Shown in pieces: positions 4,956 to 64,000 of a DNA stretch of 64,000 bases. The stretch comes from Sulfurospirillum sp. (GTDB lineage: Bacteria; Campylobacterota; Campylobacteria; Campylobacterales; Sulfurospirillaceae): the NCBI GenBank assembly GCA_045047115.1, contig JASFYR010000005.1:32001-96000 (forward strand), given 5' to 3'. A program made the translations under genes and the position numbers. Numbering within the stretch: position 1 is the first letter of the stretch; each line of letters starts with the position of its first letter. A model generated the notes under the pieces. That model had not been told where the DNA came from and did no database searches. It saw nothing but the letters and a program-made list of their open reading frames with translations.

Positions 4956-5031
4956 TGGCGACCCCAAGGGGATTTGAACCCCTGTTACCGCCTTGAGAGG
5001 GCGGGGTCCTAGACCACTAGACGATGGGGTC
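4956..5031 (-). tRNA. tRNA-Glu (anticodon CTC)
   Basis: Reverse complement GACCCCA...CCGCC-CTCTCAA-GGCGG...GGTTCAAATCCC...GCCA; 76 nt with encoded CCA. Confidence 0.93.
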
Positions 5032-5041
5032 GCACAAAAAA

Positions 5042-5117
5042 TGGTGACCCGTGTTGGATTCGAACCAACGGCCACCTCCTTAAAAGGGAGATGCTCTACC
5101 GGCTGAGCTAACGAGTC
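5042..5117 (-). tRNA. tRNA-Lys (TTT)
   Basis: Cloverleaf with anticodon loop CTTTTAA, GGTTCGAATCC T-arm, CCA end. Confidence 0.95.
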
Positions 5118-5184
5118 AAATAAACAATCTCTAATATCATAAAATTTAATTTTAAAAATGATTTAAGAAGAGAATTATAAAAAA

Positions 5185-5261
5185 TGGCGCGGCGGACGAG
5201 ACTCGAACTCGCGACCCTCGGCGTGACAGGCCGATATTCTAACCAACTAAACTACCGCCGC
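5185..5261 (-). tRNA. tRNA-Asp (GTC)
   Basis: Anticodon loop CTGTCAC, AGTTCGAGTCT T-arm, CCA end. Confidence 0.95.
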
Positions 5262-5302
5262 AACCTAAAGGTATCTAAAAGTTTAGATACAGTGTCACTA
5301 AA

Positions 5303-5378
5303 TGGTGGTCGTTAGAAGACTCGAACTTCTGACATCCACCTTGTAAGGGTGGCGCTCTACCAACTGAGCTAAACGACC
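5303..5378 (-). tRNA. tRNA-Val (TAC)
   Basis: Anticodon loop CTTACAA, AGTTCGAGTCT T-arm, CCA end. Confidence 0.95.
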
Positions 5379-5421
5379 GATTAATAATGAAAAATTTGTG
5401 TCCAGGTACTCAAAAATATTA

Positions 5422-5497
5422 TGGCGACCCCAAGGGGATTTGAACCCCTGTTACCGCCGTGAAAGGGCGGGGTCCTGGACCACTAGACGATGGGGTC
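5422..5497 (-). tRNA. tRNA-Glu (TTC)
   Basis: Anticodon arm CCGCC-CTTTCAC-GGCGG, CCA end. Confidence 0.95.
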
Positions 5498-5506
5498 GCA
5501 CAAAAA

Positions 5507-5582
5507 TGGTGACCCGTGTTGGATTCGAACCAACGGCCACCTCCTTAAAAGGGAGATGCTCTACCGGCTGAGCTAACGAGTC
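5507..5582 (-). tRNA. tRNA-Lys (TTT)
   Basis: Identical to the copy at 5042-5117. Confidence 0.95.
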
Positions 5583-12623: not shown

Positions 12624-13727
12624 TTGTTAGTGCAGACTTCAAGTGAGTATTTTGATGAGCAACTCTATCTTGAGAGTGGGCGTATTATAGAGGGTTATAC
12701 GCAAACCTACGAAAGTTATGGAGAGTTAAATAGTGACAGATCAAATGCTATAGTTGTTTTTCATGCACTCACAGGTTCTCATCATGCAGCTAGCAAGTAT
12801 GAAGGAGATTCAAAACCGGGATGGTGGGATCCTCTTATAGGCGATGGAAAGATACTTGATACGAAGAAGTTTTTCGTGATATGTGTAAATGTTTTGGGTA
12901 GTTGCTTTGGTTCAAGCGGACCAACAAGCAAAACCAAAAAAAATCAGCCTCCACTTAGGTTGAAATTTCCTGTTATTACGATAAGCGATATGGTTAGTGC
13001 GCAAATGTCTCTGTTTAAAAGGCTAGGTATCGAAAAAGCCTATGCAGTCATAGGCGGTTCACTTGGTGGTATGCAGGCACTTTGTGTTGGGGTTGAGTAT
13101 CCAGAGTTTACTGATAGGATTATAATGCTTGCCTCTACTCATGCTACAAGCCCATGGGCTATATCTTTTAATAAATTAGCTATGGAAGGCATTGTAAAAG
13201 ATCCTAGATTTAAAGACGGAAACTATGAAAAAAATGATTTTGAAGAGTTGCCTCTAAATGGTTTTGCGATTGGTAGGATGGCTGGGCATATAAGTTTTTT
13301 GAGTCCGCACTCTATGGAGAAGAAATTTGGCAGAAACTATGTTGAGACGGATGGTCTGTATGAGCTTTTTGGAAGATTTCAGATAGAGAGATATATGGAG
13401 TATAACGGATATAATTTTGCAAAAAGATTTGATCCTTTGAGTTATATATATATTATAAAAGCAATGAATATATTTGATGCATCAAGAAACTATGACTCGT
13501 TGAGTGATTCATTGAAAAATATAGAGGCAAAGATGACTCTGGTCTCATTTAGAGGTGATATGCTCTTTATGCCAAGTGAGATGGAGATGATAAGAGATAC
13601 ACTTAGAGATATGGGACGGGGTGATAGAGTTGAGTGCTATTGTGTTGATAGCAGTTATGGGCATGATGCTTTTTTGGTAGAGTATGATAAGTTTGATTTT
13701 TATATAAGAAAGGCTTTAGAGAAATGA
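12624..13727 (+). CDS. metX: Homoserine O-acetyltransferase
   Basis: HALTG, GWWDPLIG, GGSLGGMQA nucleophile elbow, YGHDAFL. Confidence 0.93.
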   Translation: MLVQTSSEYFDEQLYLESGRIIEGYTQTYESYGELNSDRSNAIVVFHALTGSHHAASKYEGDSKPGWWDPLIGDGKILDTKKFFVICVNVLGSCFGSSGPTSKTKKNQPPLRLKFPVITISDMVSAQMSLFKRLGIEKAYAVIGGSLGGMQALCVGVEYPEFTDRIIMLASTHATSPWAISFNKLAMEGIVKDPRFKDGNYEKNDFEELPLNGFAIGRMAGHISFLSPHSMEKKFGRNYVETDGLYELFGRFQIERYMEYNGYNFAKRFDPLSYIYIIKAMNIFDASRNYDSLSDSLKNIEAKMTLVSFRGDMLFMPSEMEMIRDTLRDMGRGDRVECYCVDSSYGHDAFLVEYDKFDFYIRKALEK

Positions 13728-13921
13728 GTAAAGAGATAAGTTTTGAAGATAAGCTAAAAAGTGCAAAAGAGATTTTAGAAAAGCTAAGTGACCCCAGTAT
13801 CACTCTTAAAGACGGGATGAAAGAGTACAAGAAAGGCATATCTATACTAAATGAAGCAACGAAGATGATAGAAGATGCCAAGTTGGAATATGAAAAACTC
13901 CAACCAAATGAAAATATATAA
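13724..13921 (+). CDS. xseB: Exodeoxyribonuclease VII small subunit
   Basis: SFEDKL...ILEKL...ITLKDGMKEYKKG pattern; 65 aa. Confidence 0.82.
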   Translation: MSKEISFEDKLKSAKEILEKLSDPSITLKDGMKEYKKGISILNEATKMIEDAKLEYEKLQPNENI

Positions 13922-14030
13922 TGAAATTACACAAAATTTTAAATAGTAACTTCTCTGCGCCAGCAGTAGCTTTAGTCGCGAGGAATTTTTGCGGAATTCA
14001 CTTCCGTAAAAAGGGGACAATAATATGAAA
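13921..14030 (+). repeat. Dispersed structured intergenic element, copy A, bounded by ATGAAA direct repeats
   Basis: Shares ATGAAATTACA, GCTTYAGTCGCGAGGAATTT and AAAGGGGACAATAA with the copies at 57236-57402; 27-nt hairpin at 13986-14012. Confidence 0.85.
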
Positions 14031-14819
14031 CTCGCTGCTTTACAGCTTTCTACTCTACCTATGAGTGAAGCAAAGTTGGATTATTACTTTAGGATTTGCG
14101 AAAACAAGGGTGTTGAGCTTATATTGCTTAGTGAGTATGCGCTGAACAGTTTTTTTAAAGAGCTTGAAGATATGCCGGTTCTTATGATAAAAGAGCAGAC
14201 AAACCACAAGATAAGAGTTTTAAAAGAGTTGTGCAAAAGATACAATCTTACAGTTGTTGCGCCGATAATCTTGATAAAAAACAGAAAAATGCTAAAATCA
14301 GTAGCAAAGTTTACTCCTAAAAGCGTACACTACTACAATCAACAATTTTTGATAAATTTCAAACACTGGAACGAAGAGAGATTTTTTGATAACCCAATGC
14401 AGAGATATACTCCTCAGATATTTGTGTTAAATAGGATAAAATTTGGAATTATCAGTGGTTTTGAAGCTCATTTTGATGTTGCTTGGTTAGAAGCAATGCG
14501 TAAAAATGTAGATGTTGTTCTGATGCCATCATCTTCTACATTTGAATCATCTCTAAGGTGGCAAGAGTTGCTGAAAACCAGAGCTTTTTTAAACTCTATG
14601 TATATATTAAGAGCCAATAGAGTTGGCACATATACCCAAAAAGATATATCGTGGAAGTTTTATGGACACAGTAAACTTGTAAATCCTTATGGCGATATTG
14701 AGCTTTCTTTAGGACAAAAAGAGGAGATACTTTTGTGTGATATAGACAAAGACGAGGTAAATGGAGCTAAAAAGTTATGGGGATGGAGAAGAGATTTGAG
14801 TAAAAGAGGCATGTTGTGA
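14025..14819 (+). CDS. Carbon-nitrogen hydrolase (nitrilase-superfamily) protein with degenerate active site
   Basis: MKLAALQ start, LLSEYALN, LRANRVG, FYGHSKLVNPYG. Confidence 0.85.
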   Translation: MKLAALQLSTLPMSEAKLDYYFRICENKGVELILLSEYALNSFFKELEDMPVLMIKEQTNHKIRVLKELCKRYNLTVVAPIILIKNRKMLKSVAKFTPKSVHYYNQQFLINFKHWNEERFFDNPMQRYTPQIFVLNRIKFGIISGFEAHFDVAWLEAMRKNVDVVLMPSSSTFESSLRWQELLKTRAFLNSMYILRANRVGTYTQKDISWKFYGHSKLVNPYGDIELSLGQKEEILLCDIDKDEVNGAKKLWGWRRDLSKRGML

Positions 14820-57235: not shown

Positions 57236-57402
57236 ATGAAATTACAGAGCGTTAGCTCGTGCTTCAGTCGCGAGGAATTTGTCAGGGGCTTTGCTCCTTA
57301 CAAAGGGGACAATAAAATGAAATTACAGAGCGTTAGCTCGTGCTTCAGTCGCGAGGAATTTGTCAGGGGCTTTGCTCCTTACAAAGGGGATATAAAATGA
57401 AA
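57236..57402 (+). repeat. Tandem pair (81 + 80 bp) of the dispersed structured element, copies B and C
   Basis: ATGAAATTACAGAGCGTTAGCTCGTGCTTCAGTCGCGAGGAATTTGTCAGGGGCTTTGCTCCTTACAAAGGGGA... starting at 57236 and 57317; third ATGAAA at 57397. Confidence 0.95.
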
Positions 57403-58098
57403 ATTGCTATTTTAGGAGCTATGCCTGAAGAGGTAGAGCCGTTATTAGATTATTTTGAGAGTTATAAAACTGTTGAGTATGCTAAAAATAAATTTTATAC
57501 TCTAACATACAAAGGGTGTGAAATAGTCATTGCTTATAGTAAGATTGGAAAGGTAAATGCCACCATAACAGCTACAACAATGATAGAAAAATTTGGTTGT
57601 GAAAAACTGCTTTTTAGTGGAGTAGCCGGAGCTGTAAGCGATGAGTTGAAAATAGGGGATTTGGTAGTAGCTACAAAACTGGCTCAGCATGATTTGGATA
57701 TATCCGCTTTTGGACATCCTTTTGGATATGTGCCGGAAGGTTCAGTTTATGAAAAAACAGATAAGTTACTCATAGAGATAGCTAAAGAGGTAGCGTTTGA
57801 AAAAAACCTACCCCTAAAAGAGACGGTTATCGCTACTGGAGATCAATTTGTTTGTGATCCGGATAGAAAAAAATGGATAGAAAAAACTTTTGGAGCCGGT
57901 GCTTTAGAGATGGAAGGGGCAGCTGTTGCTCTGGTTTGCAATGCTCTTGATGTACCGTCTTTTATACTTCGTTCTATCAGTGATGCAGCAGACATGGATG
58001 CCGGTTTTGATTTTGACAAATTCTTGGAGTCCTCAGCAAAAATCAGCGCTGGGTTTATAATCACTATGGTTGAAAAAATAATTGATAAAACTAAGTAA
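57397..58098 (+). CDS. mtnN: 5'-methylthioadenosine/S-adenosylhomocysteine nucleosidase
   Basis: MKIAILGAMPEE, SKIGKVNA, FSGVAG, IATGDQF, EMEGAA, RSISD; the longer ORF-track start lies inside the repeat. Confidence 0.96.
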   Translation: MKIAILGAMPEEVEPLLDYFESYKTVEYAKNKFYTLTYKGCEIVIAYSKIGKVNATITATTMIEKFGCEKLLFSGVAGAVSDELKIGDLVVATKLAQHDLDISAFGHPFGYVPEGSVYEKTDKLLIEIAKEVAFEKNLPLKETVIATGDQFVCDPDRKKWIEKTFGAGALEMEGAAVALVCNALDVPSFILRSISDAADMDAGFDFDKFLESSAKISAGFIITMVEKIIDKTK

Positions 58099-59454: not shown

Positions 59455-59617
59455 AAGCGAAATTTTATCGAAAATATCTTTTATTGAAGATTAAGTTTGA
59501 AAAAGATAATCAGATGCTTTAAAATGCCTATATAGGGTTATTTACCATATATTAAGTAAATTTATTGTATATTCTCTACTCTTAAATCTTAAAATAATAT
59601 AATAAAAGGTGGCTATT

Positions 59618-62600
59618 TTGGATCTTATAACTAGCTTTAAAGATAATTGTGGTTTTGGGCTACTGGCAAACATAGATAATATTGCAACTTATCAAAATAC
59701 AACTGATGCAGTCACTGCATTAGAGCGAATGATGCACAGAGGTGCGATAGCAGCAGACGGAAAGAGCGGGGATGGAAGTGGGCTTCTTTTTTCTCTCCCG
59801 AAAGAGTTTATGAAAAAAGTTGCAAAAAAATTAGGCGTTGATCTACCGAGACAGTTTGCTGTTGGTATGTTATTTATGCAAAATGAATCCCAAAAAGAGA
59901 TAATTGATAATATTTGTATGAAAAATGACCTAAAAGTTGTTCTTTACAGAGAAGTGCCGATAGATACAGATGCATTGGGAAAGCAGGCACTGGAGCTTTT
60001 GCCAAAAATAGTACAGGTTTTTGTTGAGCCGTCATCTTTGATTGCTACAAAAAGATTTGAATCACTTTTGTATTTAACCAGAAGAGAGATAGAAAACAGG
60101 CTAAAAGAAGACAAAGACTTTTACATTGCATCATTTTCAAGTGCAGTTATATCCTATAAAGGTTTGGTTATGCCAACCCACATAAAAGAGTTTTATCAAG
60201 ACCTTAACAATAAAAACTTTAAAACAAAATTTGCACTCTTTCACCAAAGATTTTCTACAAATACTCTACCACAATGGAAACTAGCTCAGCCTTTTAGAAC
60301 TTTGGCACATAATGGCGAGATAAACTCTATATCTGCAAATCGAGCAAATATCAAAGCAAGATACAGCACTTTGAAAAGTTCTGTATTTTCCGATAAAGAA
60401 CTTAGCAAACTATTCCCTATTACAAACGATAGTGTGAGTGATAGTGCAAGCTTGGACAATATGTTTGAATTTATGATTGCCAACGGATATGATTTTTTCA
60501 AATCAATCAGATCTCTGATACCTATGCCTTGGCAAAATGCACCTTATATTGATAGTGAATTAAGATCTTTTTATGAGTATTCTAGTATAAATTTTGATCC
60601 TTGGGATGGACCGGCTGCTGTCTCTTTTACTGACGGAAGATATGTAGCATGTGTTTTGGACAGAAACGGTTTGAGACCGGCAAAATACATCATAACAAAG
60701 GATAACAGGATTGTTATCACAAGTGAATACGGAGTCTTGGATATATCGGATTCAGATATAAAAGAGCAGGGAAGACTGCAAAGTGGTCAGATAATTGGCT
60801 TGGATCTGAAATACAACAAAGTTTTAAAAAGCAAAGATATAGACAATTATATAAAATCATCAAAACCTTATGGAACATGGTTAAATGAAAACCTGATTTA
60901 TCTTCAAGAGTATGTTGAGATGCCGTTTGAAAAAGTGAGTGATTATGAAAAAGAAGATCTTGTGTACTCTCAGAGATTTTTCAATGTAACCCAAGAGTTT
61001 TTAAATATGGTTATAGCCCCCATGATGAAAGACGCTAAAGAAGGCGTGGGTTCCATGGGGGATGATACACCTTTAGCTGCATTTAGTAAAAAACAGAGGA
61101 GTTTTAGCGACTTTTTTAAGCAAAAGTTTGCACAGGTGACAAACCCACCGATAGATCCGTTAAGAGAAAAAATTGTTATGAGTCTAAATACGGGTTTTGG
61201 AAAATTGAGTAATATATTGGATGAAACCCCAGAACATGCTGTTAGAATCAAAACTATTTCTCCGATATTGATGCAAGAAAAAATAGAAGTTTTGAAGTCA
61301 TTTGGAGATAAAAGCAAACCTAGATATATGCCATCTTACAAATCTCAAACTTTTTCAACACTTTTTGAAGACAATCTAAAAGGAAGTTTGGAAGATTTGG
61401 CTTATGATGTTGTTGAGGCTGTTAAAAATGATGGTGTCACGATGGTCTATCTTGACGATAGAGGTATGGATGACACAAACAAACCGATGCCAATGCTTAT
61501 GTGCATAGGTAAAATTCATGAAGTCTTGCTTGATGAGGGCATAAGAGATGTTGCCAGTATCATAGCAATATCCGGTGAAGCTCTTGATTCGCACTCTTGT
61601 GCCTGCATGATAGGATTTGGTGCAAGTGCTATATACCCGTATATGTTATATGCCAGCGTACTAGAGGAGGCAAAAAGAAGAGGTTTTGGCAAATATGAGA
61701 TAAAAACAAGCTTGAAAAATGCCAGTCATGCTATAAATCAGGGTTTACTAAAAATAATCTCTAAAATGGGAATTGCCACTATATCTTCATACAGAAATTC
61801 CGCACTTTTTGACAGCATTGGTCTTGCAAGAGAGATTGTTGAAGACTGTTTTAATGGTGTACATGCACTGCTTCCGGGACTTGGATATGATGATATAGAA
61901 GAGAAGATAAACTTTAATCATAAAAACGCCTTTGATATAGATATAAATAAAAGGCTTTTTCCTTTGGAAATTGGAGGTTTTTATAAATACCTGGATGGAA
62001 ACGAGTATCATGATTTTAATCCAAAAGTTGTAAAAGCTATACATAAATTGGCTAAAAACGGTCAAAGAGAAGATTATAATGCTTTGGTTGAGCTGGTAAA
62101 CAATAGAGATAAAAAAGTTATACGAGATTTTCTAGAACTATCATCTGATAGAGATCCAATTGATATAGAAGAGGTTGAGCCGATAGAGAGTATATTTAAA
62201 AGATTTAATACCGCTGCAATGAGTCTGGGATCTATCTCGCCAGAAGCTCATGAAGCCTTGGCGGAAGCTATGAATAGATTGGGTGGTATGTCAAACTCAG
62301 GAGAAGGGGGAGAGGCAACAGACAGACTCAAGAGCATCAAAAGATCTAAAATAAAACAAATAGCAAGCGGTAGATTTGGTGTTACACCAGAATACCTAAG
62401 AAGTGCTGAAGAGATACAGATAAAAGTAGCCCAAGGTGCAAAGCCAGGTGAGGGCGGACAGCTTCCGGGACACAAAGTTTCATCTCTTATCGCAAGTCTC
62501 AGATATACAATTCCTGGAGTTACACTCATCTCTCCCCCTCCTCATCATGATATCTACTCTATAGAGGATTTGGCACAGCTGATTTTTGATCTCAAACAGA

Positions 62601-64000
62601 TAAATCCGGATGCCGTCATCACAGTCAAGCTGGTTTCTACTGCCGGAGTCGGAACCATCGCTGCAGGAGTTGCAAAAGCCTATGCAGATAAGATTATCAT
62701 CTCCGGAGGTGATGGAGGAACAGGAGCCGCGCCGCTCAGCTCTATAAAATTTGCAGGAAATCCTTGGGAGTTAGGTCTAAGTGAAGCACACAATGCTTTA
62801 AAGGCAAACCATCTTAGAGGTAAAGTACATCTGCAGACAGATGGTGGTCTAAAAACAGGTTTGGATGTTATAAAAGCAGCACTTTTGGGAGCTGAAAGTT
62901 ATGCTTTTGGAACTTTAGCCCTGACGATGCTTGGATGCAAGATTTTAAGGATATGTCACCTAAATAAATGTTCTGTTGGCGTAGCTACTCAGGATAAAAA
63001 GCTTAGGGAATTTTTTATGGGCAATGTAGATAAACTGATAAATTTCTTTACCTATTTAGCTCAAGATATTAGAGAGATACTCGCAAGTCTCGGATACAAA
63101 AGTATCGAGGAGATAGTCGGCAGAAGTGATCTTTTAAAAGTTATAGAAGAAAAAATGGCTAAAAAGTTTGACTTTTCATCTGTTCTTATGAGGATAGATG
63201 GGGAGGACACTCACTCAAAACTTCCAAATGAACCATATGATAAAAATGAGTATGAAAAGAAGATTTTAAAAGAGGTCTATAAGGCCATACAAAACCCGGA
63301 ACAAAAAGTTGTCATACATAAAGATATTCAAAATATCAATAGAAGTTTTGGTACACTTATAAGTGGCGAAATTGCAAAATATTATGGAAATGTCGGTCTA
63401 AAAGAGGATAGTATAATTTTCAAATTAAAAGGCACAGCAGGGCAGTCTCTTGGGGCGTTTTTAACAAATGGGATAAAGATAGATTTGAGAGGTTCGGCAA
63501 ATGATTATATCGGTAAAGGTATGAATGGAGGAAAAATTGTCATAACCCCAACTTTCCAAAGAGAGGATTACGCCTGTGCCGGAAATACCTGTCTTTACGG
63601 AGCAACTGGTGGAAAGCTCTATATCGCAGGTATAGTCGGCGAGAGATTTTGCGTAAGAAACTCTGGCGCCACAGTAGTTGTTGAGGGAACAGGAGATAAC
63701 GCCTGCGAATACATGACGGGAGGAATCGTTGCTATTTTAGGAAGCACTGGAGTTAATTTTGGTGCAGGTATGACAGGAGGAATTGCTTTTGTATATGATA
63801 AAGAGAGAGAATTTATAGACAAACTAAATCAAGAGTTGGTTATAGCTGTTAGAGTAGATATAGACGAGAAGGATGAAGCAAAACACTTTTTAAAAAAATT
63901 ATTGAGATCTCATATAAATGAGACAGACAGTGTAAAAGCAAAAGCAATACTGGAAGATTTCAGGCACAATGTGAGAGATTTTTGGATGGTAATGCCAAAA
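59618..64000 (+). CDS. gltB: Glutamate synthase large subunit (3'-truncated by window edge)
   Basis: TTG start MDLITSFKDN-CGFG; HRGA, HQRFSTNT, HNGEIN, WDGPA, FAQVTNPPID, GAKPGEGGQLPG, SPPPHHDIYSIED, EYMTGG; 4383 nt in one frame; absent from the ORF track because no stop falls in the window. Confidence 0.97.
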   Translation, partial: MDLITSFKDNCGFGLLANIDNIATYQNTTDAVTALERMMHRGAIAADGKSGDGSGLLFSLPKEFMKKVAKKLGVDLPRQFAVGMLFMQNESQKEIIDNICMKNDLKVVLYREVPIDTDALGKQALELLPKIVQVFVEPSSLIATKRFESLLYLTRREIENRLKEDKDFYIASFSSAVISYKGLVMPTHIKEFYQDLNNKNFKTKFALFHQRFSTNTLPQWKLAQPFRTLAHNGEINSISANRANIKARYSTLKSSVFSDKELSKLFPITNDSVSDSASLDNMFEFMIANGYDFFKSIRSLIPMPWQNAPYIDSELRSFYEYSSINFDPWDGPAAVSFTDGRYVACVLDRNGLRPAKYIITKDNRIVITSEYGVLDISDSDIKEQGRLQSGQIIGLDLKYNKVLKSKDIDNYIKSSKPYGTWLNENLIYLQEYVEMPFEKVSDYEKEDLVYSQRFFNVTQEFLNMVIAPMMKDAKEGVGSMGDDTPLAAFSKKQRSFSDFFKQKFAQVTNPPIDPLREKIVMSLNTGFGKLSNILDETPEHAVRIKTISPILMQEKIEVLKSFGDKSKPRYMPSYKSQTFSTLFEDNLKGSLEDLAYDVVEAVKNDGVTMVYLDDRGMDDTNKPMPMLMCIGKIHEVLLDEGIRDVASIIAISGEALDSHSCACMIGFGASAIYPYMLYASVLEEAKRRGFGKYEIKTSLKNASHAINQGLLKIISKMGIATISSYRNSALFDSIGLAREIVEDCFNGVHALLPGLGYDDIEEKINFNHKNAFDIDINKRLFPLEIGGFYKYLDGNEYHDFNPKVVKAIHKLAKNGQREDYNALVELVNNRDKKVIRDFLELSSDRDPIDIEEVEPIESIFKRFNTAAMSLGSISPEAHEALAEAMNRLGGMSNSGEGGEATDRLKSIKRSKIKQIASGRFGVTPEYLRSAEEIQIKVAQGAKPGEGGQLPGHKVSSLIASLRYTIPGVTLISPPPHHDIYSIEDLAQLIFDLKQINPDAVITVKLVSTAGVGTIAAGVAKAYADKIIISGGDGGTGAAPLSSIKFAGNPWELGLSEAHNALKANHLRGKVHLQTDGGLKTGLDVIKAALLGAESYAFGTLALTMLGCKILRICHLNKCSVGVATQDKKLREFFMGNVDKLINFFTYLAQDIREILASLGYKSIEEIVGRSDLLKVIEEKMAKKFDFSSVLMRIDGEDTHSKLPNEPYDKNEYEKKILKEVYKAIQNPEQKVVIHKDIQNINRSFGTLISGEIAKYYGNVGLKEDSIIFKLKGTAGQSLGAFLTNGIKIDLRGSANDYIGKGMNGGKIVITPTFQREDYACAGNTCLYGATGGKLYIAGIVGERFCVRNSGATVVVEGTGDNACEYMTGGIVAILGSTGVNFGAGMTGGIAFVYDKEREFIDKLNQELVIAVRVDIDEKDEAKHFLKKLLRSHINETDSVKAKAILEDFRHNVRDFWMVMPK

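Follow-up and report, generated by a model that had tools for sequence, protein, structure and literature searches.

Results

A repeat of about 80 nt, folded into two hairpins and placed at gene starts, has been identified across Campylobacterales. We consider it likely (probability roughly 0.6) to be a non-autonomous mobile element, and its toleration probably stems from the tail, which would stand in for the displaced ribosome-binding site and start codon. The initial annotation had left the choice between a mobile element and a cis-regulatory RNA; the former is favored over the latter because the targets are unrelated, the sites turn over fast, and some copies reside in untranslated RNA genes.

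The repeat in the xseB–hydrolase junction

The window, that is, the whole analyzed stretch of 64,000 nt, belongs to the genome of Sulfurospirillum sp. (G000 below; G003 is its closest relative tested). A 17-nt core occurs in it exactly at 13969, 57261 and 57342, three matches versus 0.16 expected, a number reached in none of 100 shuffles. The first match belongs to copy A, and the other two to the adjacent copies B1 and B2. The features are as follows.

13724..13921, + strand: xseB, exodeoxyribonuclease VII small subunit, the upstream gene (TIGR01280 above cut-off)
13921..14028, + strand: 35-aa mini-ORF, predicted frame, ATG on the xseB stop and TGA on the hydrolase ATG
13921..13950, + strand: 5′ extra segment, putatively a duplicated start region and/or a relic of an earlier unit, plus spacer
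13952..13968, + strand: hairpin 1, CTGC/GCAG stem, GCCA tetraloop (both bases change in 3 of 4 pairs; pairing in 83% of cells)
13969..13985, + strand: conserved core GCTTTAGTCGCGAGGAA, exact repeat
13986..14012, + strand: hairpin 2, 11-bp stem, 5-nt loop (compensatory change in 9 of 11 pairs; pairing in 96%)
14013..14027, + strand: tail with Shine-Dalgarno-like GGGGA, spacer and ATG, presumably used by the ribosome
14025..14819, + strand: putative nitrilase/carbon-nitrogen hydrolase-family gene, downstream (weak family matches, below cut-off)
57236..57316, + strand: family copy B1, parsed 81-nt unit, in frame with B2
57317..57399, + strand: family copy B2, parsed 80-nt unit, ends at the mtnN ATG
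57397..58098, + strand: mtnN, MTA/SAH nucleosidase, downstream of B1–B2 (NF004079 and TIGR01704 above cut-off)

As initially described, the insert of copy A spans 104 nt between two ATGAAA hexamers, read from the window sequence at 13921 and 14025, and is bridged by a 35-aa ORF (13921–14028) overlapping both the xseB stop TAA (13919–13921) and the hydrolase ATG. Besides the 27-nt hairpin at 13986–14012, a second, upstream hairpin is seen at about 13952–13968, and the insert comprises the unit of about 80 nt and about 24 nt of extra sequence at the 5′ side. Of the blocks thought to be shared with the 57-kb copies, the core is exact at the three sites, while ATGAAATTACA is not family-wide. The distance from the core to the ATG, described as 56 nt for both copy A and the 57-kb hairpin, has this value in copy A and the first 57-kb copy, and equals 55 nt (57342 to 57397) in the second. 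No intrinsic terminator was called on either strand in the 13700–14200 region. Elsewhere in the window, six tRNA genes are clustered on the minus strand at 4959–5582, and the 59455–64000 region has no complete ORF of more than 115 aa (ORFs crossing the window end excluded) and no Rfam match.

Structure of the repeat unit

The unit consists of a short spacer, hairpin 1, the core, the 27-nt hairpin 2, the tail and, usually, a start codon. In 43 of the 65 fully parsed copies the ATG is located 9–12 nt past the start of the tail, the latter being of the GGGGA, GGAGA or GAAGA type. Sixteen more constitute the GATGA(C) subfamily, whose tail lacks the ATG and whose members are placed 5′ of the native Shine-Dalgarno sequence.

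The fold of copy A alone is modest (z = –1.87, with 8 of 200 shuffles equally good); the two-hairpin structure rests on covariation. In the alignment of 57 copies 92% of cells are paired and 12 of the 15 pairs change on both sides, both values being well above the shuffled and slid controls, the structure having been assigned from the same sequences that were used for this count. RNAalifold found hairpin 2 alone; hairpin 1, whose register varies from copy to copy, was assigned by hand. The encoded peptides differ between copies and use all three frames.

Among 132 distinct hairpin 2 sequences, G.T outnumbers A.C on the sense strand 79 to 24 (at eight positions versus one), and hence the sense strand is the folded one, RNA and single-stranded DNA not being separated by this bias. 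RNA would favor GNRA loops. The tetraloops of hairpin 1 are 37 GNRA and 44 GNYA, the triloops being mostly AAA or GAA, and GNNA and GNA are described, in the relevant part of one source, as stable DNA loops (PMC10085684). This spectrum hints at a single-stranded DNA stage, falling short of showing one.

The stem of hairpin 2 is preceded by a T-run and followed by an A-run; a candidate kink-turn-like GAA/GNNGA loop at its base has been considered, as has a possible likeness of the core to the sarcin-ricin loop. Terminal inverted repeats are absent: the longest perfect repeat in each copy is no longer than with permuted partners, except in the RNase P copy and one other. In tandem arrays the upstream unit usually ends with ATAG or ACAG instead of ATG (e.g., at C32:31219 and C25:48644 in G000), so that the start codon is kept by the last unit only. 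Long variants carry a branched extension of 25–35 nt in hairpin 2, two types of which recur across genomes (L111:1380-1480, L153, L053, L147, and G000:C9:65170-65293). Nothing beyond such short branched extensions was seen when we looked for autonomous versions, in which hairpin 2 would enclose a gene. The promoter scan, which is not tuned to this phylum, yielded one 9-of-12 consensus match, that is, the chance level.

Copy number and taxonomic distribution

Seventy-eight covariance-model matches have been found in G000 and 89 in G003; the profile (HMM) search yielded 84 matches in G000 and none in the reversed genome. The exact pattern is present in 21 of 61 genomes, all from one family, and the covariance model has matches in 40 of these 61; across the order Campylobacterales, 41 of the 151 genomes contain matches. 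In the latter set, some genomes of three further families have at least 12 matches, and copy number is patchy across families. Among the matches listed (80 of 95 loci), the exact-pattern matches in GTDB all carry Campylobacterota labels and Sulfurospirillum-like titles.

The plasmid and phage collections contain no match to the repeat, and none of the 17 pattern matches in viral contigs has both hairpins; we take them as chance. Comparison with Rfam produced nothing above the gathering threshold for the window, for the 400-nt E-value scan, or for 18 loci with other subfamilies. Nor was an account of the repeat found in the literature, where subscription papers, Supply 1997 and the supplements of RNA-motif surveys could hold one. 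Hence the dispersed, covarying copies that the initial annotation envisaged are present both in the genome and in its relatives, and match no Rfam family.

Position relative to gene starts

The 84 profile matches in G000 form 69 arrays, of which 59 are assessable, ten at contig ends having been set aside. For 54 of the 59, an ORF starts on the same strand no more than 45 nt away, as is the case for 22% of 3000 random intergenic positions; the copies being kin, these counts are not independent events. Four of the other five also precede same-strand starts (at 48, 61 and 90 nt, and one before a short ORF), and the fifth is in the RNase P RNA. Antisense copies are absent among the 59 arrays. The tie to gene starts is thus supported, and the Shine-Dalgarno-like tail is in line with the idea that the repeat brings its own ribosome-binding site, which the ribosome would then use. 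The supposed preference for ATGAAA is not a rule: in distant families copies precede GTG and TTG starts, and the GATGAC type is located 5′ of the native Shine-Dalgarno sequence.

The target genes, with N-termini read by eye, include those of ribosomal proteins, rpoC, dnaK, clpB, guaA and argF, and one repeat shapes the start regions of some 55 genes of G000, ribosomal-protein operons among them. An alternative would be a host-selected cis-acting mRNA element (a stability or processing element or a translation enhancer, serving highly expressed operons) spread by gene conversion and recombination at Shine-Dalgarno/ATG microhomology with no dedicated mobilizer. We consider this rather unlikely. 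It agrees with the sense-strand fold, the lack of antisense copies in G000 and the lack of a transposase link, and with ribosomal-protein, dnaK and flagellar genes being occupied recurrently. The Shine-Dalgarno window is also predicted to be slightly more open in the repeat (0.60 in 40 copies versus 0.51 in 150 genes, without a statistical test). On the other side, the copy-adjacent genes at all loci examined correspond to 161 distinct G000 orthologues without a common pathway, GNYA loops are as frequent as GNRA, and both the turnover of sites and the copies in untranslated RNA genes, described below, argue for the mobile element.

Filled and empty sites

Among 12 relatives, the xseB site is filled by other variants in two, retains only a tail in one, and is empty in nine. 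Removal of the 104 nt from copy A leaves 44 nt between the conserved xseB motif and the ATG, the relatives having 44, 44, 45 and 41 nt. Removal thus restores the spacing seen in relatives; their empty junctions are ATGA/GTGA overlaps or short spacers rather than the TAATG of the initial annotation. The three genomes filled at xseB do not form one clade: G000 with G003, and G010 with G001, are grouped at 100% support in a two-gene tree whose deeper nodes are weak. At the mtnN site a copy or a long variant is present in 4 of 11 relatives read (G011 unparsed).

Out of 56 arrays in G003, four lack a downstream ORF and six lack a usable orthologue or are at a contig end. In the remaining 46 comparable sites G000 is filled in 28 and empty in 18, a difference between the two closest genomes that speaks against a host-selected mRNA element. 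Relics are present at two or more of these 18 sites, and part of the differences are therefore losses. Sites recurring over long distances, in turn, namely infA, dnaK, hemB-argF and tRNA-Cys, fit host selection.

Some filled sites retain the native start. The native Shine-Dalgarno sequence and ATGAAA are intact 5′ of the unit at L376, the native ATG stays 5′ of it at L385, and at both loci the upstream sequence is kept as far as that ATG. A G000 site has a 14-nt repetition of the sequence surrounding the start. An ATG is present 74–110 nt upstream in 22 of the 43 ATG-ending copies and absent in 21. The word common to both ATG surroundings has 3–20 nt and is missing in the same number of copies (21 of 43), so there is no fixed target duplication.

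At the sites shared by G003 and G000 (24 of 26 parsed), hairpin 2 differs at four positions or fewer in ten cases and at 5–15 positions in 14, with no tie between its changes and those of hairpin 1. Moreover, one hairpin 2 sequence is found six times in G000, each time with a different hairpin 1. Judging from these sequences, both observations point to copying between sites.

Copies in untranslated RNA genes

Of 31 RNase P RNA genes examined, 28 could be parsed; in five of these, that of G000 among them, the repeat forms the tip of P12, while in most close relatives P12 is short. Two more P12 copies are in G025 and in the second RNase P match of G003. The G000 gene (L312:229-628; G000:C9:162528-162927) has a full copy at the tip of P12, and the 11-bp helix that closes this copy pairs with its own tail. 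Large P12 extensions are also observed in L281 (G039), L289 (G012) and L416 (G017), those of G039 and G017 having a hairpin-2-like hairpin without the core. The two RNase P RNA matches of G003 (C25:21292-21633 and C1:2061-2497), one short and one with the repeat on a 2.5-kb contig, may be a binning artifact.

In the survey of 14 rRNA operons from five genomes, the repeat adjoins the 5′ end of 16S rRNA in one of two operons of G033, and a degenerate repeat is at the same position in all three operons of G025. An antisense copy is located behind tRNA-Cys in G055, G013 and G003, and G000 retains a remnant of one. A cis-acting mRNA function disagrees with copies in P12 of RNase P RNA, in the leader of 16S rRNA and, in antisense orientation, in the spacer behind a tRNA gene. 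As the RNase P, 16S and tRNA-Cys copies all end at an AATG- or TGG-like word, and distant copies precede GTG and TTG starts, targeting looks partly sequence-guided and would afterwards be filtered by selection.

Search for a mobilizing enzyme

Y1 transposases are encoded in all 14 genomes of the genus, and the repeat resembles the REP/BIME/REPIN elements in its pair of short hairpins, its tandem arrays and the replacement of its hairpins. Still, it seems improbable that the repeat is of the REP/REPIN type or derived from IS110, with a known transposase of these genomes moving it. The Y1 genes have flanks of their own, no repeat copy flanks any of them, and neither hairpin is preceded by a conserved GTAG or GGAG in the 57-copy alignment. 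In 31 Y1-transposase and IS110 loci a single repeat match was found, before an unrelated gene. Two Y1 (RAYT-like) genes (L042:1187-1990 and L043:1414-2260) have inverted GGGG(A/T)CAG flanks, which recur in many genomes of the genus; an IS200/IS605-type tnpA is located beside a tnpB-like frame at L041:68-1899, with no repeat nearby.

The IS110 of G000 (L057:1310-2790, C9), upstream of a response-regulator-like gene, has AGGAG at both ends, and in G003 the IS110 end directly follows a repeat copy (L363). The 5′ non-coding region of IS110 shares nothing with the unit, and its sole match to the 5′ extra segment is an A/T stretch of 9 nt; the presence of IS110 is unrelated to copy number, with close homologues in genomes having zero matches (G039, G041, G042, and G056).

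Other enzymes were also rejected as mobilizers. G000 has no PF00078 match, and reverse transcriptases elsewhere are unrelated to copy number. GIY-YIG proteins show no link, the single match being in a 609-aa frame that is probably UvrC. The 31 of 369 adjacent ORFs without a G000 homologue, inspected by eye with no family scan, include no recognizable mobile gene. As repeats and insertion sequences are often unassembled in these genomes, the absence of a mobilizer is weak evidence.

The mini-ORF

Of 26 copies of the GGGGAC type, 24 have an open frame that ends at ATGA, the other frames being open in 8 and 7. From 15 of 24 upstream ATGs an uninterrupted frame extends as far as the start codon, each of the three frames being represented (P about 0.05). 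These are the observations in favor of leader-peptide control, with the mini-ORF peptide or its translation as the selected function, which is very improbable: the peptide is not conserved among copies, about half of the ATG-ending copies lack an upstream ATG, the tail of the GATGAC subfamily has no ATG, and when hairpin 2 is flipped in silico, 23 of the 26 frames are still open, so the open frame is a consensus property rather than the result of per-copy selection. Outside the GGGGAC type the frame is open in only 7 of 17 copies. Accordingly restricted, the initially claimed preservation of translational coupling appears plausible for one subfamily only, copy A included.

Discussion

Taking the repeat as a mobile element, the following scenario may be suggested. 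New copies would land at or just past the native Shine-Dalgarno sequence or start codon. The old start would sometimes be left 5′ of the unit, yielding a mini-ORF that ends on the new start, a coupling similar to that of MIRUs. Resident copies may be overwritten by other copies, each hairpin separately. The weakest steps concern the mobile form, which might be a folded single sense strand, probably of DNA, and its handling, possibly by an unlinked host or transient enzyme.

We tentatively extend this to a possible new class of minimal selfish DNA, a single-stranded cassette of 80 nt with two hairpins that, without terminal repeats or a linked transposase, would be steered to start regions, as well as to those ends of rRNA, tRNA and RNase P RNA that look like them, install its own ribosome-binding site, and overwrite residents hairpin by hairpin. 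If this is true, a selfish cassette keeps rewriting translation initiation of core genes across a bacterial order.

Comparison with known systems

REP/BIME/REPIN elements with RAYT are short hairpins present in high copy number and in arrays, with one hairpin type replacing another, and are defined by the GTAG or GGAG tetranucleotide 5′ of the hairpin. The present repeat shares the hairpins, copy number, arrays and hairpin replacement, and differs in polarity, which is fixed relative to the downstream start, and in having no linked Y1 transposase. It also differs from MITEs, as it has no terminal inverted repeats. Repeats are inserted in P12 of RNase P RNA in Rickettsia (RPE) and cyanobacteria (STRR); the same tolerance of a dispersed repeat at the P12 tip is observed here, whereas our repeat serves mainly as a gene-start cassette.

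MIRUs, in the parts of the sources consulted, are elements of 40–100 bp, present in dozens of copies, intergenic within operons, with filled and empty sites; they insert at start codons and carry a small ORF coupled at –4 spacing (PMC12548453, PMC3184786). On that description the repeat resembles them in size, in dozens of intergenic copies in gene orientation, and in filled and empty orthologous sites. The likeness is one of description, and the host is of another phylum and of low G+C. Unlike MIRUs, the repeat has two fixed hairpins around a conserved core and a Shine-Dalgarno-like tail, resides also in RNA genes, has the mini-ORF in only part of the copies, and lacks the tetranucleotide direct repeat, the shared word being of variable length or absent.

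Neisseria REP2 and Borrelia IR-A/IR-B, as far as the sections of the source used here go, have two internal stem-loops and no terminal inverted repeats, terminate 3′ in a ribosome-binding site with an ATG, and directly precede genes (PMC3184786). Within that account, the two internal stem-loops and the lack of a terminal inverted repeat are common to our repeat, as is the 3′ end with a Shine-Dalgarno-like tail and ATG (43 of 65 copies, the GATGAC type being without ATG). By the same account, our repeat is shorter (80 versus 120–180 nt), has no convincing promoter inside, is mostly within operons, forms tandem arrays, and has no shared regulon that we could see.

By this analogy, the repeat appears to act like MIRUs and to be built like REP2 and IR-A. 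In the parts of the respective papers considered, MIRUs “appear to be mobile” (PMC12548453) and the proliferation of REP2 is called an open question (PMC3184786). The family described here provides covarying copies in the hundreds, filled sites with their empty counterparts, relatives with high and zero copy numbers, and insertions in untranslated RNAs, material with which both the targeting rule and the search for a mobilizer become testable.
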